In this document: positions 4,529-47,360 of the stretch, one piece after another | Layout: the number at the start of each line of letters is the position of its first letter | How positions within the stretch are numbered: the stretch's first letter is position 1 | Virus record (IMG/VR): IMGVR_UViG_3300035034_002381 | Coordinates: 1-64,000 of that record | Length of the DNA: 64,000 nt | Origin: a virus | Taxonomy: Duplodnaviria; Heunggongvirae; Uroviricota; Caudoviricetes | Direction: 5' to 3' (one strand) | The notes under the pieces: model-generated | Told to the model about the DNA's origin: nothing | Databases searched by the model: none | What the model saw: only the letters and a program-made list of their open reading frames with translations | Program-made: the position numbers and the translations under genes

Positions 4529-6472
4529 ATGATGTCTACAAAAACAAAATCTTTATCAAAAGAAAGAGTTGCCTCTGTTTCAGGAGATAAACCAAGACTC
4601 CCAAGAACTCTTGAAACTCTTCAAGGTTTAAGAACAGCTCAAGGATTATCTGACGCGCAAATTGCGAATATGTTAGATAACGCATTATCAGAAACTTCAA
4701 GTAACCATATTATATATGTTCTTGAAAGATTAATGTTACACATTGGTGATGTGAGTCGACAACACAATATGTTGAAAGAATTGGGAATTAATTCTAAATC
4801 TGGTGGCGCACAAGAACGTGGGGTATTCCGATCTATTTTACGATGGTGGGAAAAAACTTTGCCTGAATCATTTGCAGAAAATCTTCGAGTATTCGCTGAA
4901 TTCTCAGTTTTGGAAAACTTGATGTTTTATGAACTTAAAACTGAAAGAGCAACTGGAAAATTAATTGGAAAGGAAATTTTGTTTCCTATGCCAAGTAAAG
5001 TACATGAATTTCTAGCGAACGAAATTCACAAAAATAGAAATGTGAATCTTATTGCTAAGCATTTACCAAAATATGACACTGGTAAAAGTCGAACCACTAA
5101 GAAAACCATGCATATTAAAGACGGTAAGGATAGTTTCATGTGGAAACTTCCTGAAGGTAAAGCTTGGGTTAAATTAAATGGTGATCTAATCGAAGGAGAA
5201 TCTGTTAAGATTACTCAAGGTGATGTAGTTTCATATCCTCGTGATAAATCTTCACATGTTTTAGAAAAACAAAGATTCGTTAATTCTTGGATTTCTAGTT
5301 TCTGTAAAGTTATGGGATGGTCAATTACTGATTATAACAATTTCCGTAAACAACAAAACACACCGGAACAAAAATTCTCAAGTAAACGTGTTTTAAACAT
5401 GCCGAAATCAGATTTCTGGAAAATGCTTGATGGTTTGACTTCTGGTCAAAGATACAGAGTTTCTAGAATGTTAGATTTCAATGCGGAAAAGTGGGGAGAA
5501 TTACCGAAATGGTATGATTTGTGGGAAGGTAACCAAGAAAAAGTAGCCGATAAACTTCGACAAGCTGCAGCTGATGGTGATACTGAAGCAACAGAAAAAT
5601 TGAAGAAAGAATTCAAGGTTAAATCTACTGGAAAAAACACTGTTGATTTATTGAAAGATATGTTAACAGGTAATCATGACGATAGATTCATTAACAACAC
5701 TTATCAATCTATGATTGAGAATATGGATATTGTTGCGAATGTTTTTCCAGTAATTGATGGTTCCGCATCTATGGATTGCCAAATTGGTGGAGGATGGAGT
5801 CCTCGAAGTTCTCGAAGTTCTACGGATAGACAACTTTCAAATAGAGCTGTCGCATATGCTATGGCAATTGCATTTTCTACTAGAAACCCAGTACCAGGAT
5901 TCCGTAACACGTTCGGATGGTTCTCCAGAAACTTTCACATTGTTGGAAAATCTAAGTATGTGAACAATGCACCTAATCAATACGTTGATTCTGGAAGTTA
6001 TACTAAAAAGGTTAATGAGTTCAATGTTTTATCTGAAACTAATACTTTCACTGAAAACTACTCAAACTTGAGAAAATCTGATCCAGGAGAAATATCATCT
6101 ACAAATATGGGTTCTGTGATTACTCACTTCACAAATTTAGTAGAAACTGGTAAATTTCATGTTGAGGATCTTCCATCTGCGTTACTTTTTATCACAGATA
6201 ATGAAAACAACACAGGAATTAGTCCGAAGGAAGCGTTGGCAATAGCTAACAAAATTGGATGGTCTCCATTGGTTATTTTCTGGGGGTTAACTAAAGTTCC
6301 AAGCAACATGATGAATCAGTATAAGGGAATTCCTAACTGCTTACTTGTTGGAGGATTTAATGAATCAGTACTTTCACAAGTACTTAGGGGTATTAAATCT
6401 GGTTCAGTTGATCCAGAGGATGAAATCTGGAGTATTGTCGAAAATAAAAGATATGCAGTAATTACTGAGTAA
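4529..6472 (+). CDS. Ro60/TROVE-like (or DUF2828-like) protein with C-terminal vWA domain
   Basis: 647-aa ORF; MIDAS-type DGSASM, SSTNMG, LLFITDNENNTG and VGGFNESVLSQV resemble, by eye, the Ro60 vWA motifs DVSASM, GGTDCS, TDNETFAG and CGFDTGALDV; helical N-terminal two thirds. Confidence 0.55.
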   Translation: MMSTKTKSLSKERVASVSGDKPRLPRTLETLQGLRTAQGLSDAQIANMLDNALSETSSNHIIYVLERLMLHIGDVSRQHNMLKELGINSKSGGAQERGVFRSILRWWEKTLPESFAENLRVFAEFSVLENLMFYELKTERATGKLIGKEILFPMPSKVHEFLANEIHKNRNVNLIAKHLPKYDTGKSRTTKKTMHIKDGKDSFMWKLPEGKAWVKLNGDLIEGESVKITQGDVVSYPRDKSSHVLEKQRFVNSWISSFCKVMGWSITDYNNFRKQQNTPEQKFSSKRVLNMPKSDFWKMLDGLTSGQRYRVSRMLDFNAEKWGELPKWYDLWEGNQEKVADKLRQAAADGDTEATEKLKKEFKVKSTGKNTVDLLKDMLTGNHDDRFINNTYQSMIENMDIVANVFPVIDGSASMDCQIGGGWSPRSSRSSTDRQLSNRAVAYAMAIAFSTRNPVPGFRNTFGWFSRNFHIVGKSKYVNNAPNQYVDSGSYTKKVNEFNVLSETNTFTENYSNLRKSDPGEISSTNMGSVITHFTNLVETGKFHVEDLPSALLFITDNENNTGISPKEALAIANKIGWSPLVIFWGLTKVPSNMMNQYKGIPNCLLVGGFNESVLSQVLRGIKSGSVDPEDEIWSIVENKRYAVITE

Positions 6473-6492: not shown

Positions 6493-6522
6493 AGGAGAGG
6501 CATTTTTGCCTCTCCTTTTTTT
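6493..6522 (+). terminator. intrinsic terminator
   Basis: aggagaggc-attttt-gcctctcct followed by a T-run. Confidence 0.8.
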
Positions 6523-6527
6523 ATGTT

Positions 6528-6556
6528 TAAAACTATATCAATCTTAGATATATAAT
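6528..6556 (+). promoter_or_regulatory. TAAAACT ... CTTAGATATATAAT promoter-like motif
   Basis: near-identical 40-nt block recurs at 22859-22900. Confidence 0.55.
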
Positions 6557-6576
6557 ACAAATAAATTAAATTAAAT

Positions 6577-7140
6577 ATGAAAAATGTAAAAAACTTTCGT
6601 GAGTTTCTGAACGAGAATCGAGTCGAAAAGAGATTAGCTAGTCTGGACGCAGAATATACTATTGACAAAAAGTTGTGTAAACAATTAATGGATGTGGGAG
6701 AGCAAATAGATTATATATACAATAATTTAGATTTGCCACACTCTGACTTTGCCACTTCTAATTTTATACCACCCGAAATTGAAAACGATGATAAAACAGC
6801 GAGTGATTGGGTAGAATCTGAGAAGGCTCTTATAAGAAGTGAACTAAAATCTAAAGAATCTGAATATAAAAAAATTCTTAGAAAAATACAATCTAAACAT
6901 TCGTATATTAATGATGTAATTGAATATCTTAATCAAACTAATTTAGGTTTTACTTTAGAAAATACATTTATTGATAAAATAAACAGAAGAAATGATATCA
7001 TAAATACTGTTGTAATAAAAAGTTGGTATGGGTATGCTAAAGCTTCAAGAAAAGAATTAGAAAGATATAAAATAACACCTGAGCAACTTGCAGGTACTAT
7101 ATTATCAATGCGAGCAGTCGCTGATGAACTAACATATTAG
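6577..7140 (+). CDS. hypothetical protein with CTS-like N-terminal leader (MKNVKNFREFLNE)
   Basis: 187-aa ORF; leader resembles the T4 capsid targeting sequence MKTYQEFIAE. Confidence 0.7.
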   Translation: MKNVKNFREFLNENRVEKRLASLDAEYTIDKKLCKQLMDVGEQIDYIYNNLDLPHSDFATSNFIPPEIENDDKTASDWVESEKALIRSELKSKESEYKKILRKIQSKHSYINDVIEYLNQTNLGFTLENTFIDKINRRNDIINTVVIKSWYGYAKASRKELERYKITPEQLAGTILSMRAVADELTY

Positions 7141-16355: not shown

Positions 16356-16688
16356 ATGAAAAAATGGGATGATATAAGAAACTCGATGTCTGGAAATTCA
16401 GATATTATAGAAGTTTGGAAGAAAGTTGTAGATAAACACCAAAATGAAGAAATTGAGTGGATTGAAAACCTTAGAAAACAAGGTTATAAAGCATCTCATC
16501 CTAATGACGGTTGGGTAGACAGAGAAAATAACAAAATACATCTGGTTTATCCACAATTCAACGATGGAATTGGTGTGAATGATAAACTAATGATTGGTAG
16601 TCCAAACAGTGATAATAATCGACCTGTGCGAATAACCGGCATTGATGAATTTGCAATGACATATTATTTATTTGAAGACTTAGAATAA
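16356..16688 (+). CDS. hypothetical protein
   Basis: 110-aa ORF followed by a terminator. Confidence 0.65.
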   Translation: MKKWDDIRNSMSGNSDIIEVWKKVVDKHQNEEIEWIENLRKQGYKASHPNDGWVDRENNKIHLVYPQFNDGIGVNDKLMIGSPNSDNNRPVRITGIDEFAMTYYLFEDLE

Positions 16689-17119: not shown

Positions 17120-19195
17120 ATGAACAAAGATTCTAATGTATTATTAATACTTGAAAGATCTTCATCAAATCTAGATGTTAACAAGGAATCGGGTGATTAT
17201 ATTCTCGAAGGTATTTTTGCTCAATTTGGAGTTGAAAACAATAACAAAAGGATTTATGAGGAAAAAGAGTATTTACCACATCTCGAATACTTAAAAAAGA
17301 AAATTTCAGAAAATCGATTGATGGGAGAACTTGATCACCCAGAAAAATTTGAAATTGCTTTAGACAAAGTATCTCACGTAATTGAGAATATTGAATATGA
17401 TCAAGCAAAACGCCAGATTAAAGGGCGTGTACGTATTTTAGATACGCCATCCGGAAAAATCGCAAAGAGTCTAATCGACTCTAATATTCCTATTAGTATT
17501 TCATCACGAGCTGCTGGTTCTGTGAGTGAAAATAAAACTGTTTCTATTAAGAGAATTTTTACTTATGATTTAGTTGCTGATCCAGGTTTTGAAGATGCAC
17601 AATTATCAAGAATAAATGAATCATTTGGTTTAGACAACGAAAATAATCTACAAATTTTTGATGCTTCTAGATGGGACAACAATTTTTCGTTTGATGAAAA
17701 AGAAAAAGAAAAGCCTGTTGAGGCAATAAAAGAAAATAAAGAAAATACTACAGATATGAAAGAATTTGTGACAATTGAAAGCATGGAACGCTATTCATTA
17801 ATGGTCAAAGAAGAAATTGCTAAAATCAATACACGATTAGAAACTCTGAATGAGAGTAATGCTAATTCTGATGAAACAGCAGAACTTAGAAAAACCGTTG
17901 ATAATTTAGTAGGGTATGTTAATGAAATGGCTACCGAAATTAATCAAAACAGAGAATACATGTCATATACTGCTGAAATGCTTGACGAAAGTATTTCTTG
18001 GTCAGAAAATGAGATCGGTAATCAAGTTACTAAATTAATTGAATATACTGAATCTGAATTGGCTGTTCATCTTGATGGTTTAATTGAACACAATAACTAT
18101 CTTGCAGAAAAATTAAACACGACTATTGGATACGTTAATGAAGAATTGGCTCCAATTTTAGATGAGTCTATTAATCACAATGATTATTTAGTTGAACAAA
18201 TTGCTAATAACCGAAAATATACTGAGTATCTTGCTGAAAATGCTGTAGACTCAACAAATTTTGATTCGTTAGTAGAATATACTGAACATGTATATGAAAA
18301 TGCTGCTGGAAAATTTGAAGGTAAAATTAATGAATCTGCAACTGCTGAGGATGTAATTAAAAAACATAAACTTAAAACACATCACGATGTTGCTAAGTTT
18401 ATAGGAGATTTTTATGATTTACCAGATACAATTAAAGGATCTACCGATAAATTCACATTTAAAGACGTTGAGGACAACGTAATTAAAGTTGATGGTAAAG
18501 CAGGAACAGTAGACGGTAAAAAATTATCTCTGGCGGGATTGGTTGATCTTATGTCAGGTGGTGATTTTGATCTTCTTATTGAAAATCAAGCTAATAAAAT
18601 TAACGAAAATAAAAACGTATCAACAGATATTGAAAATCGATACATGAGTATCAATGAAAAAATTGACGCGGCTCTTGAGCAGATCAAGAAAACAAAGACT
18701 GAAGAAATCACAGAGTCTAAACGTCATCCTTTCACCAAACTACTCAACGAAAGTAATAGAGCTGCTTTCACTGAGTTAGGAAAAACCGAAAAAGAAAAGG
18801 TTTCAAAAGCTCTAAATGAAAACGGTATTTTAAGTACTGTAAAACTTAACGAAAAATTCACTTCATTGTTAGAAGGTAATTTCGAAATTGTTGAAGAGCC
18901 TAAATGGTTATCTGAAGCACCAGACAAGTATAAAGCTATTTTTGAAAGTTTGAATGAGGAAACTCAGGATAAACTTAGAGCTCAAGCTTCATGGTACGAA
19001 GGTAAACTTAAATCTCCTTATCAAATCGAAAATTTCTGGGCAACTAGAGGACTGAACGAAGACGTTGAGTTGAAGAATCTGAAAGACGATGCTGATGTAA
19101 AACTTATTAAAGAAAGTAATGATAGATCTAAAGATCTGGGTTATTCTTCTGATCGAGTTGCTGCAATTAAACAAGGTCTGAAAAGATTCAAATAA
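17120..19195 (+). CDS. prohead core protease (T4 gp21-like) fused to a scaffold-like coiled-coil region
   Basis: LEGIFAQFGVENNNKRIYEEKEY...GELDHP...ISISSRAAGSV parallels T4 gp21 IEGIFMQAEVVNRNKRLYPKR...GELNHP...GVSSRGLGSL; acidic helical C-terminal 450 aa; sits directly upstream of the capsid gene. Confidence 0.8.
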   Translation: MNKDSNVLLILERSSSNLDVNKESGDYILEGIFAQFGVENNNKRIYEEKEYLPHLEYLKKKISENRLMGELDHPEKFEIALDKVSHVIENIEYDQAKRQIKGRVRILDTPSGKIAKSLIDSNIPISISSRAAGSVSENKTVSIKRIFTYDLVADPGFEDAQLSRINESFGLDNENNLQIFDASRWDNNFSFDEKEKEKPVEAIKENKENTTDMKEFVTIESMERYSLMVKEEIAKINTRLETLNESNANSDETAELRKTVDNLVGYVNEMATEINQNREYMSYTAEMLDESISWSENEIGNQVTKLIEYTESELAVHLDGLIEHNNYLAEKLNTTIGYVNEELAPILDESINHNDYLVEQIANNRKYTEYLAENAVDSTNFDSLVEYTEHVYENAAGKFEGKINESATAEDVIKKHKLKTHHDVAKFIGDFYDLPDTIKGSTDKFTFKDVEDNVIKVDGKAGTVDGKKLSLAGLVDLMSGGDFDLLIENQANKINENKNVSTDIENRYMSINEKIDAALEQIKKTKTEEITESKRHPFTKLLNESNRAAFTELGKTEKEKVSKALNENGILSTVKLNEKFTSLLEGNFEIVEEPKWLSEAPDKYKAIFESLNEETQDKLRAQASWYEGKLKSPYQIENFWATRGLNEDVELKNLKDDADVKLIKESNDRSKDLGYSSDRVAAIKQGLKRFK

Positions 19196-19213: not shown

Positions 19214-21007
19214 ATGAAACTTTTAAACGAACAAAAGATCTATGATGAGTGGGCTCCTATGCTAGAGGAGGAAACTTCAATCAAAGATTCTTCAAAATTG
19301 GGATGGATGACTAAATATTGTCACTACCATTCATTAAATGAAGCATTCACTGCACCTGCAGCTGGATTGCTTAACACGCCAGGTATGGGTAATGTAACTC
19401 CTGCTGGAGCTGCTGCCGGTGGTGCTAATGCATTCTACGGAAGTACTACTACTGGTTCAGGAGATAAATTCCCTTCATTATTGCCACTATCTATTCAGGT
19501 AGCTGCAAGAACTGTAGGATTTGATATCGTTCCTGTTATTCCTATGAACGGACCTTCGGGGGTTCTTACATACATGGATTATGTCTATGCTGGTGGAAAA
19601 GGAGCATTCGGAGCACCTCCAGGTGCTGCAGGTGCTGCAAACCCAGGTCTTAACGCTTACGCTGACAAGCCGTTAGTATTCAAAATCCAACTTGTTGGAG
19701 ATGAGAAAACTGCTTTCGATGCTGCTGCTGCGGGTGATGAATTCTTATTTGCTTCTGGTGCACTTGCTGCAACTGGAAACACACTACGTGTTGCTAAAAT
19801 CGGTCCTTCTAGAATCGACGGTCACTCTATTTTTAGAGTAATTGGAGAATCTGGTGATGCTGATGCGACTGGCGGTGCAGCTGCTGCTGTAGCGACAACT
19901 CTTACATCGCCACAATCTATCACATTGGCTTCTGTATTTACAGGAACTGCTGCGATGATTACTGCGGCTGGTGCTTTAGTTGATGCTGCTGATTCAGTAG
20001 TTAATCGTCCAGAACTTGTTAAAGCTCTTGAAGATCACGTTCAAGGTTTTGCTGGTGCAGGTCCAAACGATGATGAAGCATGGTCAGGAAATGCGACTGA
20101 TGGTACTGTATCTTACGAACCAATGCGAAGAGGTGTAGGTGAAGAGCAGTACTTCAGAACTATGGGACTTCAAGCTTTCACGAAATTCATTGAAGCTGAA
20201 ACTTTCCAAGTTGCTGCTAATGTTACTACAGAACAAATTCAAGATTTACAACGTCAGTATGGAATCGATGTGATTGCAATGATCGAGAACTCATTAGTAA
20301 ATGATATCTCTCAATCTATTAACAAGCACATTCTTTCTAGAGCTTTCGCTCTTGGATGGGGTGCAAACCTTACATTCAGAGATGTTGAAGGTGCAAACCT
20401 TAACCTTGAATTGGTAAACACTGGAACTGGTGTTACTGCAACTCCTGCTTACATTGATAAGACTGGAGTAGGTACTGCATCTGTATATCCTGCTTTCCAA
20501 GAATTTGCTGGAGCTGCTGCTGCTGCATCATTGGAAAACCAAGCAACATTCCAACGAAGAGTATATTCTAAAGTACTTGCTGCTGGAAACGTTGTTACTC
20601 AAAGAGGACGTAGAGGACCTGCAAACTTCATTGTTACTAACCTTCAGTTAGCGACAGCGTTGCAAGATTCTGCACAATTCTCTTGGGCACCAATGGCAAA
20701 CACCATTAACCAAAACAACGGTTCGCTTTACCCAGTGGGTACTGTAGCCGGAATGACTGTTTATGTAGATCCTAACATGGGATTCTCTGATAACAGAATT
20801 CTTGTTGGACGTAAAGGTGCTGATGAAGAACCAGGACTTAAATTCATGCCTTACTTAATGGCTGAATCAATCCAAACAATTGCTGAAGGTACAATGGCTC
20901 CGAAAGTTGCCGTAAAATCACGTTATGCTTTAGTTGAAGCTGGACACCACCCAGAAACAATGTACTTTACTATTGCAGTAAATGTACCTGTAGGTGGATT
21001 AGTATAA
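19214..21007 (+). CDS. major capsid protein (T4 gp23-like)
   Basis: 597-aa Ala/Gly-rich ORF; VGFDIVPVIPMNGPSGVL, EQIQDLQRQYGIDV, GRRGPANFIVTN and MTVYVDPNM line up by eye with gp23 blocks; strong terminator downstream. Confidence 0.8.
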   Translation: MKLLNEQKIYDEWAPMLEEETSIKDSSKLGWMTKYCHYHSLNEAFTAPAAGLLNTPGMGNVTPAGAAAGGANAFYGSTTTGSGDKFPSLLPLSIQVAARTVGFDIVPVIPMNGPSGVLTYMDYVYAGGKGAFGAPPGAAGAANPGLNAYADKPLVFKIQLVGDEKTAFDAAAAGDEFLFASGALAATGNTLRVAKIGPSRIDGHSIFRVIGESGDADATGGAAAAVATTLTSPQSITLASVFTGTAAMITAAGALVDAADSVVNRPELVKALEDHVQGFAGAGPNDDEAWSGNATDGTVSYEPMRRGVGEEQYFRTMGLQAFTKFIEAETFQVAANVTTEQIQDLQRQYGIDVIAMIENSLVNDISQSINKHILSRAFALGWGANLTFRDVEGANLNLELVNTGTGVTATPAYIDKTGVGTASVYPAFQEFAGAAAAASLENQATFQRRVYSKVLAAGNVVTQRGRRGPANFIVTNLQLATALQDSAQFSWAPMANTINQNNGSLYPVGTVAGMTVYVDPNMGFSDNRILVGRKGADEEPGLKFMPYLMAESIQTIAEGTMAPKVAVKSRYALVEAGHHPETMYFTIAVNVPVGGLV

Positions 21008-21034
21008 GAAATATCTTAAACTATATAAATACCG

Positions 21035-21066
21035 AGAGGGGATCGAAAGATTCCCTCTTTTTTTTT
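21035..21066 (+). terminator. intrinsic terminator of the capsid gene
   Basis: agagggga-tcgaaaga-ttccctct followed by a T10 run. Confidence 0.85.
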
Positions 21067-21069
21067 GCA

Positions 21070-21100
21070 TAAAACTTTATTCAATATTGTATATATAATA
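21070..21100 (+). promoter_or_regulatory. TAAAACTTT ... TATATATAAT promoter-like motif for the endonuclease gene
   Basis: lies between the capsid terminator and the ATG at 21117. Confidence 0.5.
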
Positions 21101-21116
21101 TACAATTATTAGAGCC

Positions 21117-22802
21117 ATGAACACTTCAGTCAAAGATATTATAAAAAACGTAAAATCCACCAAAGGTTTAGCAGTAAAAATATCAAATTCAGAAAGTCTA
21201 AATAAAGAACTTTTAGAATTAACCAAATACCTACCAACAGACTCTAGTATATCTGAGCGCATTTATAATATCTTAAATAATATTGATGTACAAAGTCTTT
21301 GTATTTGTGGTGACACATTACCATTCATTAAAATTTCCAAAGGTTACAAAACTTCGTGTGGTAATAAAGAATGTAAGTCGCGAACACGGAGTAATATTAA
21401 TAAAGAATCCAGTAAGAAAATAGACTGGGGCGAATCGATCAATAAACAACAAAAAACCAATTTACAAAAATACGGTTATGTTTCTAATCTTGCATCACCT
21501 AAAGAACGAGAAAAACATAAAGTTATTCTTAAAGAATTGACTGGATATGAACACCCATTACAGAATCCTGAATCTAAAAAGAAAAGACATAACACTTGTA
21601 TAAAAAATCATGGTACATTAAATTTCATCCATTCAAATAAATCAATACAAACGTTACAAGCAAAATATAATACCACTGCCACTAATTGTGCTCAAATACC
21701 CGAAATTCAAGATAGATCTGCCAAAACCCAATCTATAAATGCTGATAAAGCTTTATATCAAAAAATTGATAAAATAAATAAAACTATAATAGATCTTAAT
21801 AAAACAAATGCTAATATTGAGTGTGTGGGTTGTGGTCGTATTATGAATATACATCGGCAAGCACTCAATTATTATATTCGAAATTCTATTGACAATTGTT
21901 GGTCTTGCAACCCTGATTTTTCACCATTTGCCAGTAACAAAGAAAAGATGATTGTTACATGGCTCACTGATATAGGTATCACAAATATTGACACAAATCG
22001 CCGGAGATTTGGTGGTAAAGAAATAGATATTTTCTTAAATGATTATAACCTAGGAATTGAATTCAATGGCACATATTGGCATAGTGAATTACACAAAGAA
22101 AAAAATTACCATTTAAATAAAAAAACATATATTGAGAACTTGGGTTTCAAGTTGATTAATGTTTGGGAAGATGATTGGGAAGATGATATAAAACGTAATA
22201 TAATTCAAAGCAGAATTAAAAATTTAATAAACCTAAATCACCGCAAAATATATGGGCGTAAATGTCAGATAGTTCAAATATCTAACAAAGAAGCTAAAGA
22301 ATTTTATACCAATAATCATATTCAAGGTCATGCTATATCAGAAATTAACTACGCATTAGTATATGATAATGAAATTGTTTCAGTCATGAGCTTTTCTAGT
22401 AAAAATAGATTTTTCATTAAGAAAAATAGGGATAATGAAATAGAGTTGACTAGATTTGCAAATTTGATAGGTGTAAGTGTTTTAGGTGGTTTCTCTAAAC
22501 TATTCAAACATTTTTTGAAAAATAATGACCATGATACCATTATTTCATTTGCAGAATTTGATTGGACTGATGAGACTAATAATGTTTATCTTATGAATGG
22601 TTTTAAATTTTTAGGGAATTCTGGACCATCGTATTCATGGGTTGTTAATGGAAAACGGTTTTCTAGATTTAACTTTTCTAAGCAAAAATTAATCAAAGAA
22701 GGTTATGATAAGAATAAAACAGAAGTCGAAATAATGCACGAAAGAAAATATTATCGAGCTTGGAATAGTGGTAACTTAAAATTTATTTATAATAAATTAT
22801 AA
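21117..22802 (+). CDS. free-standing homing-endonuclease-like protein (PD-(D/E)xK/Vsr-like core plus Hef-like C-terminal region)
   Basis: GGKEIDIFLNDYNLGIEFNGTYWHSE nuclease-like block; C-terminal IYGRKCQIVQISNKEAKEFYTNNHIQG resembles proteins annotated Hef-like; Cys-rich N-terminus; own promoter; inserted between the capsid gene and a relic of its 3' end. Confidence 0.5.
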   Translation: MNTSVKDIIKNVKSTKGLAVKISNSESLNKELLELTKYLPTDSSISERIYNILNNIDVQSLCICGDTLPFIKISKGYKTSCGNKECKSRTRSNINKESSKKIDWGESINKQQKTNLQKYGYVSNLASPKEREKHKVILKELTGYEHPLQNPESKKKRHNTCIKNHGTLNFIHSNKSIQTLQAKYNTTATNCAQIPEIQDRSAKTQSINADKALYQKIDKINKTIIDLNKTNANIECVGCGRIMNIHRQALNYYIRNSIDNCWSCNPDFSPFASNKEKMIVTWLTDIGITNIDTNRRRFGGKEIDIFLNDYNLGIEFNGTYWHSELHKEKNYHLNKKTYIENLGFKLINVWEDDWEDDIKRNIIQSRIKNLINLNHRKIYGRKCQIVQISNKEAKEFYTNNHIQGHAISEINYALVYDNEIVSVMSFSSKNRFFIKKNRDNEIELTRFANLIGVSVLGGFSKLFKHFLKNNDHDTIISFAEFDWTDETNNVYLMNGFKFLGNSGPSYSWVVNGKRFSRFNFSKQKLIKEGYDKNKTEVEIMHERKYYRAWNSGNLKFIYNKL

Positions 22803-22822
22803 TATATACAACATATATACTT

Positions 22823-22864
22823 GTTGAGGCGGGTCACCACCCAGAAACAATGTTCCCTCTTTTT
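22823..22864 (+). repeat. relic copy of the capsid gene 3' end fused to the distal half of its terminator
   Basis: 22823-22853 matches 20933-20963 at 28 of 31 nt, all three differences being synonymous third positions (VEAGHHPETM); 22853-22864 ttccctcttttt equals 21051-21062. Confidence 0.85.
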
Positions 22865-22869
22865 ATGTT

Positions 22870-22898
22870 TAAAACTTATATTAATCTTAGATATATAA
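22870..22898 (+). promoter_or_regulatory. TAAAACTT ... CTTAGATATATAAA promoter-like motif
   Basis: near-identical to 6528-6556. Confidence 0.55.
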
Positions 22899-22918
22899 AC
22901 TACATATAATCAAATAAT

Positions 22919-23111
22919 ATGAAGACATTTAATGAATACGAACAAATCAATGAATCTGGTAATTAAAACTGCACAAAAAATTCAAATAGATCTTAAGAAA
23001 TTTCTTGAAGATGTAGTAATACCAGCATCTAATGGATATGTTAGAAATGAAGGTGATGCAGCTTTATTGTTATACGATATACTTGCACAAAAATATGATA
23101 TTACAACATAG
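22919..23111 (+). pseudogene. frame-split CTS-family gene (MKTFNEYEQINES...)
   Basis: 15-codon ORF with a CTS-like start, then a 53-codon ORF (MNLVIKTAQ...) overlapping it in another frame. Confidence 0.35.
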
Positions 23112-23235
23112 ACGCTATGAATGACGACGAAAAAATATAGTTTAAGTTCCAAATTATAGATTTAGTTAAGAAAAATCCCAACAATGAAAAACTGGGTGAA
23201 AAGATTAGATCTTTTACTAAAAATATGATATAAAG

Positions 23236-23484
23236 ATGAAAAACATAAAAGATTTTGGTGAGTTTAAATTAAATGAAAAAAGAAATGAGGCACTGAAAAA
23301 GGTTAAAACATCTTCGACTGTGCTAGATAATTTTGTTATGGATGTATTAAAAACTCAAAAGCTTTATCAAAACGAAATTCCTAAGCTACTTGCTAATGAT
23401 AAAGAATTAATAACTGAATTCAAAGAAGGTCGACAAGCATTTAATGATCTTCGAATATTAAATGATATGCTTGCAAAGAAATAA
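23236..23484 (+). CDS. CTS-leader small protein (MKNIKDFGEFKLNE)
   Basis: 82-aa ORF. Confidence 0.65.
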   Translation: MKNIKDFGEFKLNEKRNEALKKVKTSSTVLDNFVMDVLKTQKLYQNEIPKLLANDKELITEFKEGRQAFNDLRILNDMLAKK

Positions 23485-23492
23485 ATAATACA

Positions 23493-23702
23493 ATGAAAAA
23501 CTTAAAAACATTTGAACAGTTTGTAACTGATAAGCTAATGGAAGGTGCAATGTCTGATATACATCTTATGGCTAAAAATTCTAAAACTATAGAAAATTTT
23601 ATAAAAGCTTTTTATAAAAAATACGATAATAAAGTCAAGAAGGGAAAAAGCACTGATGAATGGATAATCAGTCTATATAATGATATGGAATCAAAAACAT
23701 AA
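23493..23702 (+). CDS. CTS-leader small protein (MKNLKTFEQFVTD)
   Basis: 69-aa ORF; its first 30 nt are nearly identical to those of 23712. Confidence 0.65.
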   Translation: MKNLKTFEQFVTDKLMEGAMSDIHLMAKNSKTIENFIKAFYKKYDNKVKKGKSTDEWIISLYNDMESKT

Positions 23703-23711
23703 ATACCACTA

Positions 23712-24743
23712 ATGAAAAATTTAAAAACATTTGAACAATTTGAACTAGAAAATCTTAATGAGAAAGTGGGTTATAATCAAATTTCACACAAAAATAAAAG
23801 TTTTGTAGTTTATAATCATAAAGGAATTGAAGATTTATCTAAAAAATATAAAATTGTCAACCTAAAGAATTCTGTAGGACCTGATATAGAATTTCCTGCA
23901 ATAGCAGAATTAGATAATAATAAACCTTTTATTAGAAACATCTATAGACATGAGCTTGATAAATTAGAAAAAGGAATCTTTTTCGAATCCCATAATTTAG
24001 ACAAAGATGCTAAACTTTTTGAATCTGGAGCGATAACTAAAATTTTGACAGATGCAGGATTTATCAGTTTTGAAGACTCTGATGAATATGATTATGATAT
24101 AGGAATAGGTGGAGTAATTAACACTGTTGATCCAGGTATAGCTAAAGATATAGCAGATGAATTAAATGATAATGGTATATCTGCGAAAGCAAAAAGAGAT
24201 ACTGTAATTGTTGAATCTGTGAATGAGGGAATTTACGCTGATAAACTCGCAAAAGGATTATGGGATGGTGACATGGATTTTTCCGATTTAAGTAAAAGTG
24301 AACAAGACTTAATCGACAAGTTCGTCAAAAGAAATCTTGGTATCTTTAAAGACGAAAGATTTGAGATTCCCTTTCCTGATGAAGCTGCTGACACTGGAGA
24401 GTTTTGGGATGAAATTCAAAAAGATAAAGATTACTCAAAATTTGCAAAGGCTGTTAAAAAAGCAAGTTTGGGTGAAATTGAGTTTGTGAACGAATCTATT
24501 AATCAGATTCCTGGAGAAATACAATTTAATGTTGAACCACATACGTTTCTTAAAGATCCTAGAGAACTAGACAAAGCAGTAGCTGAAGTTGATAAATATT
24601 TAGCGGGCGGTAAAGAAAACATTGGCGGATTTATGATAGATCGATATTTAAAAGATTCTTTTGATCTTGATGCGTTTATTGACTCTGTGCATTTACATTA
24701 CCCTAGACCAATGATTCCTGAAATTCAATCCAAGAATCTATGA
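23712..24743 (+). CDS. CTS-leader protein (MKNLKTFEQFELEN)
   Basis: 343-aa acidic ORF. Confidence 0.75.
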   Translation: MKNLKTFEQFELENLNEKVGYNQISHKNKSFVVYNHKGIEDLSKKYKIVNLKNSVGPDIEFPAIAELDNNKPFIRNIYRHELDKLEKGIFFESHNLDKDAKLFESGAITKILTDAGFISFEDSDEYDYDIGIGGVINTVDPGIAKDIADELNDNGISAKAKRDTVIVESVNEGIYADKLAKGLWDGDMDFSDLSKSEQDLIDKFVKRNLGIFKDERFEIPFPDEAADTGEFWDEIQKDKDYSKFAKAVKKASLGEIEFVNESINQIPGEIQFNVEPHTFLKDPRELDKAVAEVDKYLAGGKENIGGFMIDRYLKDSFDLDAFIDSVHLHYPRPMIPEIQSKNL

Positions 24744-24937
24744 ATGAAGCTAGTCATAAAAATGATTTTCTTGATTTTTTCCGAGTTCCTGATTCTAAAA
24801 GGTTAAAATTTGCAATTTATAAATTTGATGGTAATGACGATATGGATGATTTATTTGATGATCTTAAACCTTATGCATCGACAGTTGATGAGGTTAGAAA
24901 CTATTATGAAATAGCAACAAAAACACGCGATAATTAA
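24740..24937 (+). CDS. small acidic hypothetical protein
   Basis: 65-aa ORF, ATGA overlap. Confidence 0.55.
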   Translation: MNEASHKNDFLDFFRVPDSKRLKFAIYKFDGNDDMDDLFDDLKPYASTVDEVRNYYEIATKTRDN

Positions 24938-25806
24938 TGAACTTTAAAACATATTCACATCTGAAGGAAATTCTTCATGAAAGTGAAAATTATCAAGAAG
25001 TAATACATGAAGCTTTTGAATGGATTGAGGATGATTCTATTTTTGAGGCATACGCGTGGGCTTTTATTAAAAGCCCTGTTAAAGTGACTAAAATGTTTAC
25101 TAATCAAAATAAGCTTACAAAATCTTTAATTAGTCAGGCTGTTATTGATATTGATCTACAGAATCGTAAAGAAGCTGCTAAAAAAATATCTGACCCACAG
25201 AAAGCCAAAAACCAGAGAGAAAAACTCCAACAAGCTCATGACATAAAGAAAAAGGGTTTATCCGATAAAATCAGTGGTATAAAACAAAGAATTGATGATT
25301 TAGCTGGTAGTGATTCTAAACTTCAAGAATTGGCTTCAAATTTAAAAACTAAATCTGGATTAGCTGCTGCAGAGAAATTAATTAAGGCAGCTGATGGGGC
25401 AGAACAGAAAGAATTACAAATTAAGATTAGAAAAAGTAAAGAAAAACTTTCGAGACAAGAAAACATTTTTAAAGAATATGAGTCTAATCTTTCTACTGAG
25501 GATAAAGCTAAAGGTCAAGAACAAGCTAAAACTGCTAAATCTGAAGACGATGGAAAATCTGATTCTACTAAAAAGGATGCAGAGTCTTCTATTGAGGAAA
25601 AAATCGAGGCGGAAAAGGATGCAATTAACGATTTAGTTAGAGAATTTAATGGGAAGAAAAAGAAAATTGCAGAAGCTAGAAAAAGATCGCATATTACACA
25701 AGCAAAATTTGATGAGTTAATGAAAAATCTCATGAAAGAAGGTCACCAAGAAAAAATTGATGTTCATAAAAAGAACATTATAGATTTAAAAAAGAATAGC
25801 AAATAA
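24937..25806 (+). CDS. Lys/Glu-rich coiled-coil protein (weak CTS-like start MNFKTYSHLKEILHE)
   Basis: 289-aa ORF, TAATG overlap. Confidence 0.7.
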   Translation: MNFKTYSHLKEILHESENYQEVIHEAFEWIEDDSIFEAYAWAFIKSPVKVTKMFTNQNKLTKSLISQAVIDIDLQNRKEAAKKISDPQKAKNQREKLQQAHDIKKKGLSDKISGIKQRIDDLAGSDSKLQELASNLKTKSGLAAAEKLIKAADGAEQKELQIKIRKSKEKLSRQENIFKEYESNLSTEDKAKGQEQAKTAKSEDDGKSDSTKKDAESSIEEKIEAEKDAINDLVREFNGKKKKIAEARKRSHITQAKFDELMKNLMKEGHQEKIDVHKKNIIDLKKNSK

Positions 25807-26081
25807 TGAAAAAGGCAAGAACATTTACAGAATTTAATGAGTCTATATCAAACGAAGAAGAACTAAATGAAGCAGTCGATGTATTTATCGCAATTGCTGA
25901 AGCTTTAGACGTAAGTTTAGATGTCGCAAAAATGATAGTAGCTTTGGCAGGAGTCACCGGAACAGTAACTTTCGCAGCAGCAATGACAAAAATCCAAGAT
26001 GTATTGGCAAAGAAAAATCCTAAATTATCTAAGAAATTAGGTGATATTACAAAAGGAGCAAATAACGCGAGAACACAATAG
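25806..26081 (+). CDS. CTS-leader small protein (MKKARTFTEFNES)
   Basis: 91-aa ORF with a hydrophobic central segment. Confidence 0.6.
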   Translation: MKKARTFTEFNESISNEEELNEAVDVFIAIAEALDVSLDVAKMIVALAGVTGTVTFAAAMTKIQDVLAKKNPKLSKKLGDITKGANNARTQ

Positions 26082-26085
26082 AAAT

Positions 26086-26505
26086 ATGGATGATATTAGC
26101 AATGGAGGTGGAATTCTCCAAAAAACAAAGATACTTACAGTAACAAATAAGATTGGTTATGCCAAGAATTCTGAGGGTGTGACTTCTGTATTTGCTAATA
26201 CTGATATTGGAGCAGGCGATCTTATCGAGGTTGCGACCCTTCTAGAAGTTTCAGATATGGTGATGACAAATAGAGAAATTGCTGATCATGTTTTTACAGT
26301 AAATCCAGAAAGTAAACAATATGCGATCGGTTTAGGATTTGCTTGTTTATATCAACATAACGATAAACCTAACGCCGAGTGGAATATACCTAGCGATAAA
26401 AAGGAAATCAGATTTACTGCTAAAGACGACATAAAAAAATCTGAAGAAATCACAATTTCATACGGAAAGAATTATTTCCTAAGTAGAGAAAAGAAAGAGG
26501 AATAA
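26086..26505 (+). CDS. SET-domain protein (putative protein lysine methyltransferase)
   Basis: FACLYQHNDKPNAEW resembles the NHSxxPN motif and EEITISYGKNYF the ELtxdYg motif; start moved to the ATG at 26086 because the track start at 26041 is GTG and overlaps the previous gene. Confidence 0.55.
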   Translation: MDDISNGGGILQKTKILTVTNKIGYAKNSEGVTSVFANTDIGAGDLIEVATLLEVSDMVMTNREIADHVFTVNPESKQYAIGLGFACLYQHNDKPNAEWNIPSDKKEIRFTAKDDIKKSEEITISYGKNYFLSREKKEE

Positions 26506-26562
26506 ATTTTGGAATAAGCTAAAACATTTGAGGCTTTCATGAATATAAACTAAAAGATATTC

Positions 26563-26973
26563 ATGAAAGCCTTTACTTATGTTATAGATATTGATGACAC
26601 TATCAATATTACCGATAGAGATGAAAATAATATAGGACTGTATTCTCAGTCTCGGCCGATACTTAAAGTTATCAATAAAATTCGAAGACTTAAAAAAGAA
26701 GGCCACAAAATCATACTTTTTACTGCTAGAGGTATGCGTACATTTAATAATGATGTCAAAAAAATCGAAGATTTTCATAGAGAAACACTCGTTAAATGGT
26801 TAAATGACCATGAAGTCCCTTATGACGAACTACAGTTCGGTAAACCATGGGGCCCCCATGTAATATATGTCGATGATCGTGCTGTTACTATTAACCAATT
26901 TGTTTTGGGTGGTCCCGAAAATCACAGAAGTTATACACACATTAACAAAACAGTTATAAATGATGAATTATAA
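26563..26973 (+). CDS. HAD-superfamily phosphatase
   Basis: motif I VIDIDDTI, motif II ILFTARG, motif III/IV K...YVDDR. Confidence 0.65.
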   Translation: MKAFTYVIDIDDTINITDRDENNIGLYSQSRPILKVINKIRRLKKEGHKIILFTARGMRTFNNDVKKIEDFHRETLVKWLNDHEVPYDELQFGKPWGPHVIYVDDRAVTINQFVLGGPENHRSYTHINKTVINDEL

Positions 26974-28660
26974 AGTAATTATTCCCGCGGCAGGGAAGGC
27001 ATCAAGACTCAAGCCTTTATCTTCTTCAATGTCAAAATCAATGGTGCCAGTAAATGGTAAACCAATAATTTCATATATTCTTGATCAACTGTTTGAACTA
27101 GGAAATCCATTTCAAATAGTTATTGTTGAAAATGAGCTCGGTGATATTCAAGATTTTGTTAAAAACGCATATCCAAATTATTATGAAGAATCCCGTATTC
27201 TTTTTGCAACTCAAAAAGAAAGGTTAGGTCCTTTGCATGCTATTGAAATTGGTGCAAATAGGTTTCCGGAAAATGATAACATGCCAATTATGGTTTGGCT
27301 CGGAGATACAATCTGTTTGGAAATGGGTGAGTTGCCAGTTAATGAATCTTTATTAATTACATCGCCTGTCGCCGATTATAAAAGATGGTGTTTAGTAGAT
27401 AACGAGAATGTCTTCTATGATAAACCAGATAACAAACCAAGCACTAACCAAGCTTTAATAGGTATATATTATTTCCATGATTTTAAGGCCTTCTACGAGG
27501 CCCTAGATAAGGGAATGCAAGCTCCTATGATTAAAGATGAACATCAAATATCGGCTTTATTAGAAGCATATAAAAAACAACATATATTCAAAATCAGAAA
27601 AACTGATGAATGGTTTGATTGTGGTGAGTTACATACATTTTATGAATCTAAAGCAAGACTTCTTGGAAGATCTGCCAGGTCATTTAATAGTCTAGAAGTA
27701 AATACATTCCATAACACAATTACTAAATCTTCATTAACATTCGAAGGTAAACTGAAAATTGAGAATGAAAAAAATTGGTATTTAGGTTTACCTGAGAATA
27801 TTCAGATTCTCACACCTAGAGTATTAAAATCAAATTCAGGTACGCTAGTTATGTCGCAAGAACCTGGAACACCTCTTAATGAAATGTGGCTTTATGAGGA
27901 TTTGACTGATGATACATGGAAAAGAATAATTGATAAAACGTTACTTATACACAATAAAATTTTCTATCAATCTAGATATATTCCTAAATCTTCTAAATTA
28001 GATAGATTTGCTGCAAGAAAGGAAATGTATCTGACTAAAAATATTGACAGATTGACAGAAATTTCATTCCTGCCTTTTGCACAGAAAAATATAAAAATGA
28101 TTCGAGATTTTGTGCGGGTTACTGGTGAATTATTAATTGAAGATGAAGGTCGTTGGTCGCCACATTTTCATGGAGATTCTCACATGGGTAATATTTTATT
28201 TGAACCTTTACAGGGAAGTATGAAATTTTTGGATCCACGTGGAAAGTTTGGAAATATCGTAGGCATTGAGGGCGATATGTATTATGATATGGCTAAAATT
28301 GCGCAAGATTTTCTTTTACGCTATCCTGAAATTTTATCTGGTCATTATCATTTTAGTGGAGATAATTTTGACCAGCTTGAATTTTATAGAAATGACGAGA
28401 GATCTAAAACTATGCTAAAACATTTCAGAAAAAGAATTGGTGAATATGGTTATATTCCTAATCTTGTTTTAATGTTAGCAACTGTGCTTATCATAACTTG
28501 TATACCTTTTCATAAAGACGATCCAGAAAGACAAAAAGCATTTTGGTATATGGCAGTAAATGTTATTAAAGAAAGAGGGTGGAATATCCAACTCGAAGAT
28601 CATCTCAAAAAACAAAAATTACAATTATCAGACAAGATACATAATCTATACAACTTATAA
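26960..28660 (+). CDS. bifunctional nucleotidylyltransferase (N-terminal) / APH-fold small-molecule kinase (C-terminal): LicC-LicA-like or MurU-AmgK-like
   Basis: N-terminal IIPAAGKASRLKPLS...KSMVPVNGKPII is an NTP-transferase signature; C-terminal HGDSHMGN (H-x-D-x4-N), FLDPRG and GDMYYDMAKI resemble choline/aminoglycoside kinase motifs. Confidence 0.65.
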   Translation: MMNYKVIIPAAGKASRLKPLSSSMSKSMVPVNGKPIISYILDQLFELGNPFQIVIVENELGDIQDFVKNAYPNYYEESRILFATQKERLGPLHAIEIGANRFPENDNMPIMVWLGDTICLEMGELPVNESLLITSPVADYKRWCLVDNENVFYDKPDNKPSTNQALIGIYYFHDFKAFYEALDKGMQAPMIKDEHQISALLEAYKKQHIFKIRKTDEWFDCGELHTFYESKARLLGRSARSFNSLEVNTFHNTITKSSLTFEGKLKIENEKNWYLGLPENIQILTPRVLKSNSGTLVMSQEPGTPLNEMWLYEDLTDDTWKRIIDKTLLIHNKIFYQSRYIPKSSKLDRFAARKEMYLTKNIDRLTEISFLPFAQKNIKMIRDFVRVTGELLIEDEGRWSPHFHGDSHMGNILFEPLQGSMKFLDPRGKFGNIVGIEGDMYYDMAKIAQDFLLRYPEILSGHYHFSGDNFDQLEFYRNDERSKTMLKHFRKRIGEYGYIPNLVLMLATVLIITCIPFHKDDPERQKAFWYMAVNVIKERGWNIQLEDHLKKQKLQLSDKIHNLYNL

Positions 28661-28670
28661 AAAACATACT

Positions 28671-28949
28671 ATGAGCAAAGATTTAGAAAAAGCTAGTGAG
28701 ACACTAGAAGAAACATTGACAGATATCCAAAAGGTGGCAGCTGCTAATTTTTATGATATTGTACAAATTAGTTTAGCCGATAAAGAAGGTAAAGTAGTTG
28801 GTAAAGCTTCTATGAAATATGAAGATATTTTAGCAATGACTAAGATGCATACACAAGATTCTTCACACGTTGTAGGAATGTTATTTCATGCAGTCGAATC
28901 AGAAACTCGTAACAAATTACGAGAAGAAAAAGAAAATGAAGCCAAATGA
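28671..28949 (+). CDS. hypothetical protein
   Basis: start trimmed to MSKDLEK to avoid a 100-nt overlap with the previous gene. Confidence 0.55.
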   Translation: MSKDLEKASETLEETLTDIQKVAAANFYDIVQISLADKEGKVVGKASMKYEDILAMTKMHTQDSSHVVGMLFHAVESETRNKLREEKENEAK

Positions 28950-46718: not shown

Positions 46719-46749
46719 AGCCCGAGCAAATTAATGCTCGGGCTTTTTT
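46719..46749 (+). terminator. intrinsic terminator
   Basis: agcccgagc-aaattaat-gctcgggct followed by a T-run; a second small hairpin lies just upstream. Confidence 0.85.
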
Positions 46750-46796
46750 ATGTTGTTTAAAAATTGATATATAATCTATAAAGAAAATAACATATA

Positions 46797-47360
46797 ATGA
46801 AAAATTTAAAATCTTACGAAAATTTTGAGAATCAACTTTTAGAAAATGGGTGGAGTGGTGAACATCTCGACGCAAATTTTAAACTTGATGGAAATGAAGT
46901 AATTGTGACTTTTGATAAAGCCATGACTTCAGCAGTCAAAAAAGTTCTTGCTGGAAAGAACGATCCTCTACTTGATACAGTAGAGGATGAGATCAGAATT
47001 CAATTAGGTAGAGAAATTGACTGGGATCAAGATGTTGAACCATCTAAATCAGGTATAGGAATGAGATTTGTGCTTGAACATATTCAACTTTTTGAAGGAA
47101 AAGCTTCGCCTGGTGGTGAAATAGAAATTAAAGAACTACAAGATTTGGTAGATGATTTACCTAAAACTGTAATTACACAAAACGCAGAGTACGACAGATT
47201 CGACAGAAATTTTAATTTTGAATTTACAATTAGTGGTGATAATTGGCAGATATATTATGACAAATTGGCCAAGTCACCATATTTATTAAATCTGGATAGT
47301 GGAACGGATAAAGAAATAGTTAATCCACTGGAATTACAAAAATTACTTAAATCATTTTAA
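46797..47360 (+). CDS. CTS-leader protein (MKNLKSYENFENQ)
   Basis: 187-aa ORF. Confidence 0.7.
   Translation: MKNLKSYENFENQLLENGWSGEHLDANFKLDGNEVIVTFDKAMTSAVKKVLAGKNDPLLDTVEDEIRIQLGREIDWDQDVEPSKSGIGMRFVLEHIQLFEGKASPGGEIEIKELQDLVDDLPKTVITQNAEYDRFDRNFNFEFTISGDNWQIYYDKLAKSPYLLNLDSGTDKEIVNPLELQKLLKSF

Follow-up and report, generated by a model that had tools for sequence, protein, structure and literature searches.

How did a fragment of a capsid gene come to lie behind the endonuclease gene next to it? This question is raised by a 64,000-nt stretch of DNA from a tailed phage (Caudoviricetes; IMG/VR record IMGVR_UViG_3300035034_002381, positions 1 to 64,000), which is hereafter called the window and is the ENA contig ERZ27315366 k141_21517 of an uncultured phage. 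In the T4-type head module of the window, a prohead protease/scaffold gene (17120–19195) is followed by a major capsid gene of the Gp23 type and then by a 561-amino acid (aa) open reading frame (ORF) that resembles endonucleases. Behind this ORF, a relic of capsid codons is fused to half of a terminator (Table 1). The relic and the half terminator are probably (at a probability of roughly 0.6) a repair scar left by the mobility of a free-standing endonuclease gene of the Hef/EDxHD kind.

Capsid codons and half a terminator behind the endonuclease gene

The relic and the resident copy of the capsid codons VEAGHHPETM match in 28 of their 31 nt. At the other three (GAA/GAG, GCT/GCG, and GGA/GGT), the change is always synonymous and at a third position, in agreement with the initial annotation, which had pointed out this repeat. 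Of the 90 single substitutions possible in the 10 codons, 19 are synonymous; therefore, three random changes would all be silent at p ~0.009. Even when up to three mismatches are allowed, the 31-nt segment matches two sites only, the resident copy and the relic, and none of 100 dinucleotide-preserving shuffles gave even one match.

The alleles of the capsid genes in related loci (designated by L numbers) should be noted. The relic-type segment GTTGAGGCGGGTCACCACCCA is found exactly in the capsid genes of L023 and L001. The relic differs by 1 nt from the clade-wide consensus GTTGAGGCTGGTCACCACCCAGAAACAATGTA, while the resident copy carries two derived silent changes, and both of these sites stay in the consensus state in the relic. 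The synonymous-only differences, together with the occurrence of the relic wobble states in real capsid alleles, suggest that both copies diverged while coding, in different lineages. The change from GAG to GAA is also found in the endonuclease-free loci L025, L003, and L032, which rules it out as a marker of endonuclease carriers. At the left edge of the relic, ACTT|GTTGAGGC agrees with the Leu codon CTT of L020 and L021 at that position, and the relic may extend 4 nt further left. Read-through of the endonuclease ORF into the relic is ruled out, because the reading frames are different.

The relic runs straight into the distal half of the capsid terminator, as the initial annotation had described. 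The 12-mer TTCCCTCTTTTT is found at two sites only in the window, at 21051 in the complete terminator and at 22853. In the resident copy, 87 nt lie between the segment equivalent to the relic and the 3′ arm of the terminator, and these 87 nt are missing downstream of the endonuclease ORF. The relic and the half terminator form no comparable hairpin (z −0.4), so that completion of a terminator hairpin by the relic with TTCCCTC is ruled out. The promoter block that follows (22858–22900) is nearly identical to 6517–6560. The real capsid 3′ end, the full terminator, the TATATATAA motif at 21090, and the 561-aa ORF (21117–22802) lie between the two copies; the initial annotation had given both this order and the second promoter block correctly.

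L018 (Logan contig SRR7141805_1664), which originates from another sample, is the same as the window base for base over 19537–28802. Since L018 is an independent assembly carrying the identical sequence, the repeat is no assembly artefact.

Table 1. Features of the capsid–endonuclease region in the window
Feature	Position	Strand	Basis or remark
Major capsid gene, 597 aa, Gp23 type	19214..21007	+	Pfam Gp23, E 4e-35; C-terminus ...GGLV and stop, common to relatives
Resident functional copy, codons VEAGHHPETM plus T, GTTGAAGCTGGACACCACCCAGAAACAATGT	20933..20963	+	2 synonymous differences (GAA, GGA) from clade consensus
Complete intrinsic capsid terminator	21034..21068	+	strong hairpin with 11-bp stem (−17.6 kcal/mol, z −4.0); TTCCCTCTTTTT from 21051 is 3′ arm plus T-run
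Endonuclease promoter region	21063..21116	+	TATATATAA at 21090–21098; part up to 21097 kept in L022
Segment of 2579 bp absent from L022	21098..23676		endonuclease ORF, relic, 59- and 82-aa ORFs, most of 69-aa ORF
Endonuclease ORF, N-terminal part, aa 1–275	21117..21941	+	Pfam DUF7487; invariant cysteines; AlphaFold2 model
EDxHD/Vsr-like nuclease domain, aa 276–371	21942..22229	+	family profile vs PDB 3R3P; weak Pfam MTES_1575 match of restriction endonuclease type
Mom-like GNAT domain, aa 372–561, and stop codon	22230..22802	+	Foldseek, Pfam Mom, hhalign
Spacer, 20 nt, endonuclease stop to relic	22803..22822	+	last 4 nt (ACTT) may belong to relic
Relic copy of VEAGHHPETM codons, GTTGAGGCGGGTCACCACCCAGAAACAATGT	22823..22853	+	noncoding; without in-frame start; frame unlike that of endonuclease ORF
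Half terminator, 3′ arm and T-run only	22853..22864	+	12-mer TTCCCTCTTTTT directly after relic
Promoter block of next gene, T-run and ATGTTTAAAAC...GATATATAA	22858..22931	+	also at 6517–6560

The endonuclease and its Mom-like domain

The 561-aa product matches PHROG 3339, "homing endonuclease," with an E value of 7e-105, and by blastn the nuclease region matches genes of Campylobacter phages annotated as "Hef-like homing endonuclease." The family profile matches the catalytic domain of I-Bth0305I (PDB 3R3P) with E values of 4.5e-5 to 7.5e-6. In this alignment, Asp304, Asn317, His322, and Asp352 correspond to the active site residues Asp196, Asn208, His213, and Asp222, respectively. Glu276, Asp304, His322, and Asp352 are invariant in an alignment of 17 sequences, and the latter three also in an alignment of 52 sequences. 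The Pfam MTES_1575 match is under its cut-off, and a search of NCBIfam gave no match. The EDxHD family, as defined, takes in the Hef-type enzymes of phages (PMC3239194). Thus the ORF, for which the initial annotation had proposed a likeness to homing endonucleases, is by prediction a Hef-type (EDxHD, Vsr-like) nuclease with intact catalytic residues.

In the part N-terminal to the nuclease domain, two Cys4-type clusters (Cys62/Cys64/Cys81/Cys86 and Cys239/Cys261/Cys264) flank the helical DUF7487 repeats, and this part is presumed to be a DNA-binding region. No group I or group II intron match is found in 20500–23300, and the capsid ORF is complete upstream to ...GGLV and its stop codon, indicating that the endonuclease gene is free-standing and ruling out an intron- or intein-encoded endonuclease. 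The gene has its own start codon and its own promoter motif. The motif [AGT]ATATATA[AC] occurs 16 times on the plus strand and 4 times on the minus strand, mostly 10–45 nt before ORF starts; the endonuclease ORF and the gene after it are among these cases, as would be expected of a promoter motif. No further copies of the endonuclease gene are found within the window.

The C-terminal domain of approximately 190 residues has a GNAT fold in the AlphaFold2 model of the 561-aa protein, whose predicted local distance difference test (pLDDT) value is 89.9. The best Foldseek match of this fold is Mom of phage Mu (8BV8, E 1e-6). Pfam Mom (PF25680) matches 10 of 20 C-terminal domains of the family, the domain in the window itself being below the threshold. 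A direct sequence-profile match of the domain to Mom in PDB was not found, and the relationship to Mom therefore rests on the fold search and the Pfam Mom profile. The essential residues of Mom are Arg111, Ser124, Asp149, and Arg151 (PMC13219725). In a weak hhalign alignment (E 0.027), Arg446, Ser460, and Tyr491 correspond to Arg111, Ser124, and Tyr159 of Mom, whereas Asp149 is replaced by Glu and the essential Arg151 by Asp in the window protein. The C-terminal domain is, as modeled, a Mom-like GNAT domain. This domain was absent from the initial annotation and is the least expected feature of the locus. Fusions of Mom with a restriction endonuclease (REase) in jumbo phages are read by Iyer et al. 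(2021) as modification plus restriction (PMC7824862), and the "Hef-like homing endonucleases" and these Mom+REase fusions appear to be one family.

Distribution, close relatives, and parallel duplications

In a survey of 85 distinct related capsid loci with downstream sequence, a member of the endonuclease family was regarded as capsid-adjacent if it starts ≤1.5 kb past the capsid stop. Such a member is found in 12 of the 85 loci, in 11 of them on the same strand as the capsid gene. A capsid-end duplicate is found in none of the 73 endonuclease-free capsid loci; the comparison with relatives lacking the gene, which the initial annotation had called for, thus leaves its link between the duplicate and the endonuclease gene standing. 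Three of the four closest homologues in a search of 5.8 billion proteins (P0122, 73%; P0124, 41%; P0125, 40%) are also capsid-adjacent. This presence, patchy yet faithful to the site, is what a homing gene gives, and the lineage is a putative specialist of the site just 3′ of Gp23-type major capsid genes. The major capsid gene is the conserved neighbor and probably also the target gene. L042 has a smaller ORF with DUF7487 and an REase-like domain at the same place on the opposite strand. In the endonuclease-free loci L051 (83% over the C-terminal part) and L023 (71%), the order is capsid gene, terminator, promoter, and next gene.

Cultured close relatives were not found by blastn against 50,697 phage records, which gave short matches of 68–73% only. 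Exact-protein look-ups with the capsid protein, the endonuclease, and the 59-aa product returned the source contig and one identical contig, and nothing else.

L022 (JGI Ga0307983_1000289) is 99.4% identical to the window and is the only near-identical relative without the endonuclease gene. Its junction (L022 5940–5960) lies in TATATAAT-like sequence with microhomology of ~3 nt. L022 retains the endonuclease promoter (21063–21097), the last ~20 nt of the 69-aa ORF, and the resident capsid allele. On account of this retained promoter and ORF tail, L022 is taken as a deletion derivative of an endonuclease-carrying ancestor, and its candidacy as a naive empty site is ruled out. This secondary deletion, together with the resident allele, also means that L022 cannot tell which copy is foreign. 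The deletion puts the promoter of the endonuclease gene before a 343-aa gene.

L020 (capsid, 85% identical) has a 73%-identical endonuclease gene at the same place, and L021 (capsid, 76%) has one there with a C-terminal half of 39% identity. In the comparison of the window with L020, DNA identity is 71.8% for the endonuclease gene and 81.8% for the capsid gene (53% versus 65% at third positions). The endonuclease gene is thus diverged at least as much as the capsid genes, suggesting that it is old in the lineage and predates the split between the window and L020. Its identities at the three codon positions are 77, 85.5, and 52.9%, which indicates long-term purifying selection. The sliding identity of the capsid gene against L020 and L021 has no clear breakpoint, and a chimeric capsid gene is unsupported. 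The stretch past the endonuclease gene of L020 forms a good terminator (−16.6 kcal/mol, z −3.5), whose 3′ arm GTTCCCTCTTTTT is that of the half terminator in the window. In this stretch (L020 11560–11606), the last six endonuclease codons (RRELSQ and stop) form the 5′ arm, and the loop holds GTGGATTAGT, identical to the last capsid codons. Behind the gene, GTGGATTAGT and TCCCTCTTTTT each match only weakly (E 0.17 and 0.04), and the fold of the stretch is that of a working terminator; for these reasons, the idea that L020 holds a further relic was set aside as ambiguous.

A larger duplicate is present in L060 and L061, which are independent assemblies with an endonuclease 40% identical to that of the window. 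Behind their endonuclease gene, a perfect 48-nt copy of the last 15 capsid codons and the stop codon, (M)YYTLSFALDGVDII and stop, is followed by a diverged intergenic stretch and then by an allelic capsid terminator (AAACTGGTTCCTTTTTTT versus AAACTAGTTCCTTTTTTT). The L060 duplicate begins where the window relic ends, at ATG|TAC, after the conserved HP.T codons. The arrangement in L060 and L061 is a putative uneroded form of what the initial annotation proposed.

Insertion polymorphism at the capsid site is seen in another group of loci, L208, L064, and L216, which are 99.4–99.9% identical to each other: the site is empty in L208 and filled in L064 and L216. In L064, 24 nt comprising the terminator loop, 3′ arm, and T-run are duplicated on the two sides of the cassette, with only a half terminator behind the endonuclease gene. 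The cassette of L064 recurs in L216, where the left junction is another one, at +42 of the next gene, and a perfect duplication spans 101 nt (5888–5988/7691–7791). L216 calls for caution; it is either a true variant with rearrangements or a contig that is in part faulty. Strong flanking direct repeats, defined by an E value below 1e-5, are found in 6 of 86 distinct endonuclease family loci. The structures of L064, L216, and the repeat-flanked loci indicate that capture by homology on one side and an illegitimate join on the other, with duplication of flanking DNA, recur in the family.

Many loci (L057, L075, L080, L084, L088, L093, L098, L102, L104, L134, and others) have two or three diverged family copies, arranged in tandem or convergently, within a few kb. 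Just upstream of the endonuclease gene of L119 stand 25 nt that copy the 3′ end of this gene itself, which suggests that one endonuclease copy may have been replaced by another.

Origin of the probable scar and comparison with known systems

The history that we favor would start with a break in the capsid 3′ region of one genome. The left end would invade an endonuclease-carrying relative and copy the capsid end, the terminator, the promoter, and the endonuclease gene, so that the left side would be resolved by homology inside the capsid gene. The new DNA would then be joined without homology to the unresected right end, leaving the capsid end and terminator of the recipient stranded downstream. 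A subsequent 87-nt deletion with microhomology of 1 nt, starting right behind ATGT and reaching the terminator's 3′ arm, would leave the 31 and 12 nt seen in the window. A naive empty junction would read GGGGATCGAAAGATTCCCTCTTTTTATGTTTAAAAC, and an uneroded relic would continue ACAATGTACTTTACT. We infer the order of these events, the identity of the foreign copy, the nuclease activity, and the target. The initial annotation had likewise proposed a displaced capsid end followed by a deletion, and this part gains from L060 and L061, where a displaced copy stands uneroded with its terminator; its proposal that the incoming copy was the foreign allele is not established. Nor does the relic appear to mark the first arrival of the cassette, as had been supposed. 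The endonuclease gene is old, being as diverged from L020 as the capsid gene is, while the relic is unchanged at first and second codon positions; the relic is therefore probably the trace of a re-invasion or recombination after that arrival.

Several observations weigh against this history. A naive empty-site relative of the window phage was not found, L022 being a deletion derivative. A neutral relic as old as the endonuclease gene should have changes of the nonsynonymous type, so that the second, later event must be assumed. The half terminator could descend from the terminator of the endonuclease gene itself and not from the displaced capsid terminator. Among the 12 capsid-adjacent cassettes, only those of the window and L060 have a capsid-end duplicate. 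L216, one of the parallel cases, is a single contig with a second odd tandem duplication of 159 nt in the capsid gene (5043–5200).

The chief rival explanation takes up the third of these points. A break in the endonuclease gene's own terminator would have been healed with ~31–35 nt of filler DNA from the capsid gene of a co-infecting relative; the 5′ arm and the loop would be replaced, and the relic would be the trace of a local repair and not of an incoming cassette. The hairpin behind the L020 gene, with the same 3′ arm as the half terminator in the window, is in accord with such a patch, as is the young appearance of the relic next to an old gene. Nevertheless, the patch needs two illegitimate junctions within 31 nt and gives no reason for a filler that comes from the capsid 3′ end, which is also the region duplicated, terminator included, in L060. 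Furthermore, the block past the half terminator belongs natively upstream of the next gene, as at 6508–6560, where it has a full terminator before it. We regard the patch as unlikely. Retention of the relic for a use, either as a downstream homology arm for entry at the capsid cut or as a binding or decoy site of the endonuclease, would account for the lack of first- and second-position changes in a noncoding segment, for the 48/48 identity of the L060 duplicate amid diverged flanking intergenic DNA, and for the meeting of the two duplicates at ATG|TAC. It is improbable, however, as 10 of the 12 capsid-adjacent cassettes have no such copy, what the window and L060 keep of the capsid end does not overlap, a homology arm of 31 nt would be short, and the relic was lost along with the endonuclease gene in L022. 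Chance similarity or a chimeric assembly might be thought of in an AT-rich genome with many short repeats, but the shuffling result, the partner 12-mer directly adjacent to the relic, and the identical sequence in two independent assemblies from different samples leave it next to no probability.

Another rival explanation concerns the function of the ORF, not the origin of the relic, and is compatible with mobility. The ORF would be mainly a weapon of the phage, a single-chain system resembling restriction-modification, in which the REase-fold nuclease attacks host DNA or that of competing phages and the Mom-like domain modifies the adenines of the phage itself. The Mom-like nature of the C-terminal domain, the equivalents of the Mom catalytic residues Arg111, Ser124, and Tyr159 in the weak alignment, and the long-term purifying selection on the gene agree with this function, and the jumbo-phage fusions were interpreted in this way (PMC7824862). 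On the other hand, the equivalent of the essential Arg151 of Mom is Asp, and Hef is cited as a homing endonuclease (PMC2988022 reference B41; PMC3239194). The patchy, site-specific presence beside one conserved gene, with empty and filled sites among 99% identical genomes, the several diverged copies in single loci, and the flanking duplication scars are the behavior of a mobile homing gene. A function mainly as a weapon is therefore a doubtful proposition. A combination of both activities, in which the lineage is a mobile single-chain element that cuts at ...CCAGAAACAATG|TAC... and shields the site of its carrier by the Mom-like domain, with the duplicates as entry remnants, is a speculative possibility of slightly lower standing. 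If it were true, the EDxHD domain would cut endonuclease-free capsid genes, the Mom-like domain would modify the adenines at this site in the carrier, the carrier would keep a near-consensus target uncut, and the capsid-end duplicates would be left by entry at a cut in an essential gene together with a replacement gene end.

As for the target, the initial annotation had suggested that it may lie at or near the HHPETM-coding stretch, which is not established. One hint of a candidate target is that the window relic and the L060 duplicate meet at ATG|TAC, and another is that the capsid stretch around this point is strongly conserved at the nucleotide level. Between the window and L022, there are no single-nucleotide polymorphisms (SNPs) in 20221–21097 and nine in the preceding 850 nt; between L064 and L208, the final 750 nt of the capsid gene have none, against 15 in the 1515 nt before them. 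These SNP-free tracts (~750–880 nt) are compatible with localized gene conversion around a cut in the capsid 3′ region, or with an exchange boundary. However, the SNPs are unevenly spread elsewhere as well, and endonuclease carriers are not told apart from noncarriers by any single silent change.

Read as a repair scar of endonuclease mobility, the locus would be a sequence-level record of a free-standing homing endonuclease gene entering and leaving a phage genome beside an essential gene. On one side, DNA would have been captured by homology, and on the other it would have been joined illegitimately; the stranded gene end would then have eroded, and a deletion of 2.6 kb would later have removed the gene, leaving the endonuclease promoter to serve the next gene. 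The locus also defines a Hef-type gene lineage that keeps to the 3′ side of Gp23-type capsid genes in many uncultured phages, and the consensus, resident, and relic alleles are natural substrates for target mapping.

The endonuclease gene belongs to the known Hef/EDxHD kind, and the scar is an informative but ordinary by-product of mobility. As in Hef of phage U5 and other EDxHD enzymes, the ORF is phage-borne and has a Vsr-like core with E, D, (N), H, and D; Hef is likewise free-standing. I-Bth0305I, in contrast, is intron-encoded and has ~266 aa, with NUMOD repeats on the N-terminal side and the nuclease on the C-terminal side, whereas in the window ORF the predicted nuclease is central, after a Zn-ribbon and the DUF7487 repeats, and is followed by the Mom-like domain of ~190 aa. 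Free-standing endonucleases cut a neighboring conserved gene and spread by co-conversion (PMC2988022), and segD of T4 follows directly on the major capsid gene, in the interval from gene 23 to gene 24 (PMC2988022 Table 1). Like segD and other Seg/Mob genes, the window gene is free-standing and intergenic beside a conserved essential gene, patchy among relatives, and provided with its own late-type promoter motif. The nucleases of Seg/Mob are of the GIY-YIG or HNH family, while the window ORF is of the EDxHD family, and in the literature searched no leftover duplicate of the gene 23 end is reported for segD, in contrast to the relic in the window.

In mitochondria of the fungus Endoconidiophora resinifera, cob and atp6 are each followed by endonuclease ORF(s) and a partial C-terminal copy (PMC6279837), an architecture shared with the window and L060. 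The fungal cases stand in organelle genomes; their enzymes are of the LAGLIDADG or GIY-YIG type, and their duplicates are much longer. The window relic, unlike these duplicates, is eroded to 31 nt and fused to a half terminator. In Allomyces atp6, a partial C-terminal duplication beside an endonuclease ORF was reportedly described by Paquin et al. in 1994. A full-text literature search gave no report of a partial duplicate behind an endonuclease gene next to the capsid gene of a phage.

The Mom+REase fusions of jumbo phages share the combination of a nuclease with a Mom-type GNAT domain. They are read as restriction with protective modification, whereas the window lineage behaves as a site-specific mobile gene and the window protein lacks the equivalent of Arg151. 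In a study of nuclease genes at exchange boundaries, homing endonuclease genes cluster by capsid and other essential genes (Barth, Dunham and Seed 2023; PMC10448857). In two genome pairs here, each of one carrier and one noncarrier of the gene, identical tracts reach up to the endonuclease site. The families treated there are T5orf172 and HNH, and duplication scars of flanking genes are not its subject.

Apart from the scar, the region behind the capsid gene is variable. The gene after the relic (22919–23111) looks frameshifted: the ATG at 22919 opens MKTFNEYEQINESGN and a stop, 15 aa with the N-terminus typical of a local gene family, and the 59-aa ORF from 22932 is in another frame than this ATG. 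This family of small genes starting with MKN(L/V)K.F.EF is found at 6508–6577, 22858–22932, 23236, 23493, 23712, and 46730–46797. Several members are preceded by the same module of a T-run, ATGTTTAAAAC, and GATATATAA, which suggests that gene-plus-promoter units may have been repeatedly duplicated in this region. Further insertions and deletions between the window and L022 are a 243-nt in-frame deletion in the protease/scaffold gene (18355–18597; 691 versus 611 aa), a 198-nt loss at 24260–24457, which is the size of a 65-aa ORF, and a 128-nt insertion at 16686. In precomputed Pfam hits of the source contig, a SET-domain protein (PF00856) and a Peptidase_M43 protein (26041–26505 and upstream of 17000) are found near the head module.

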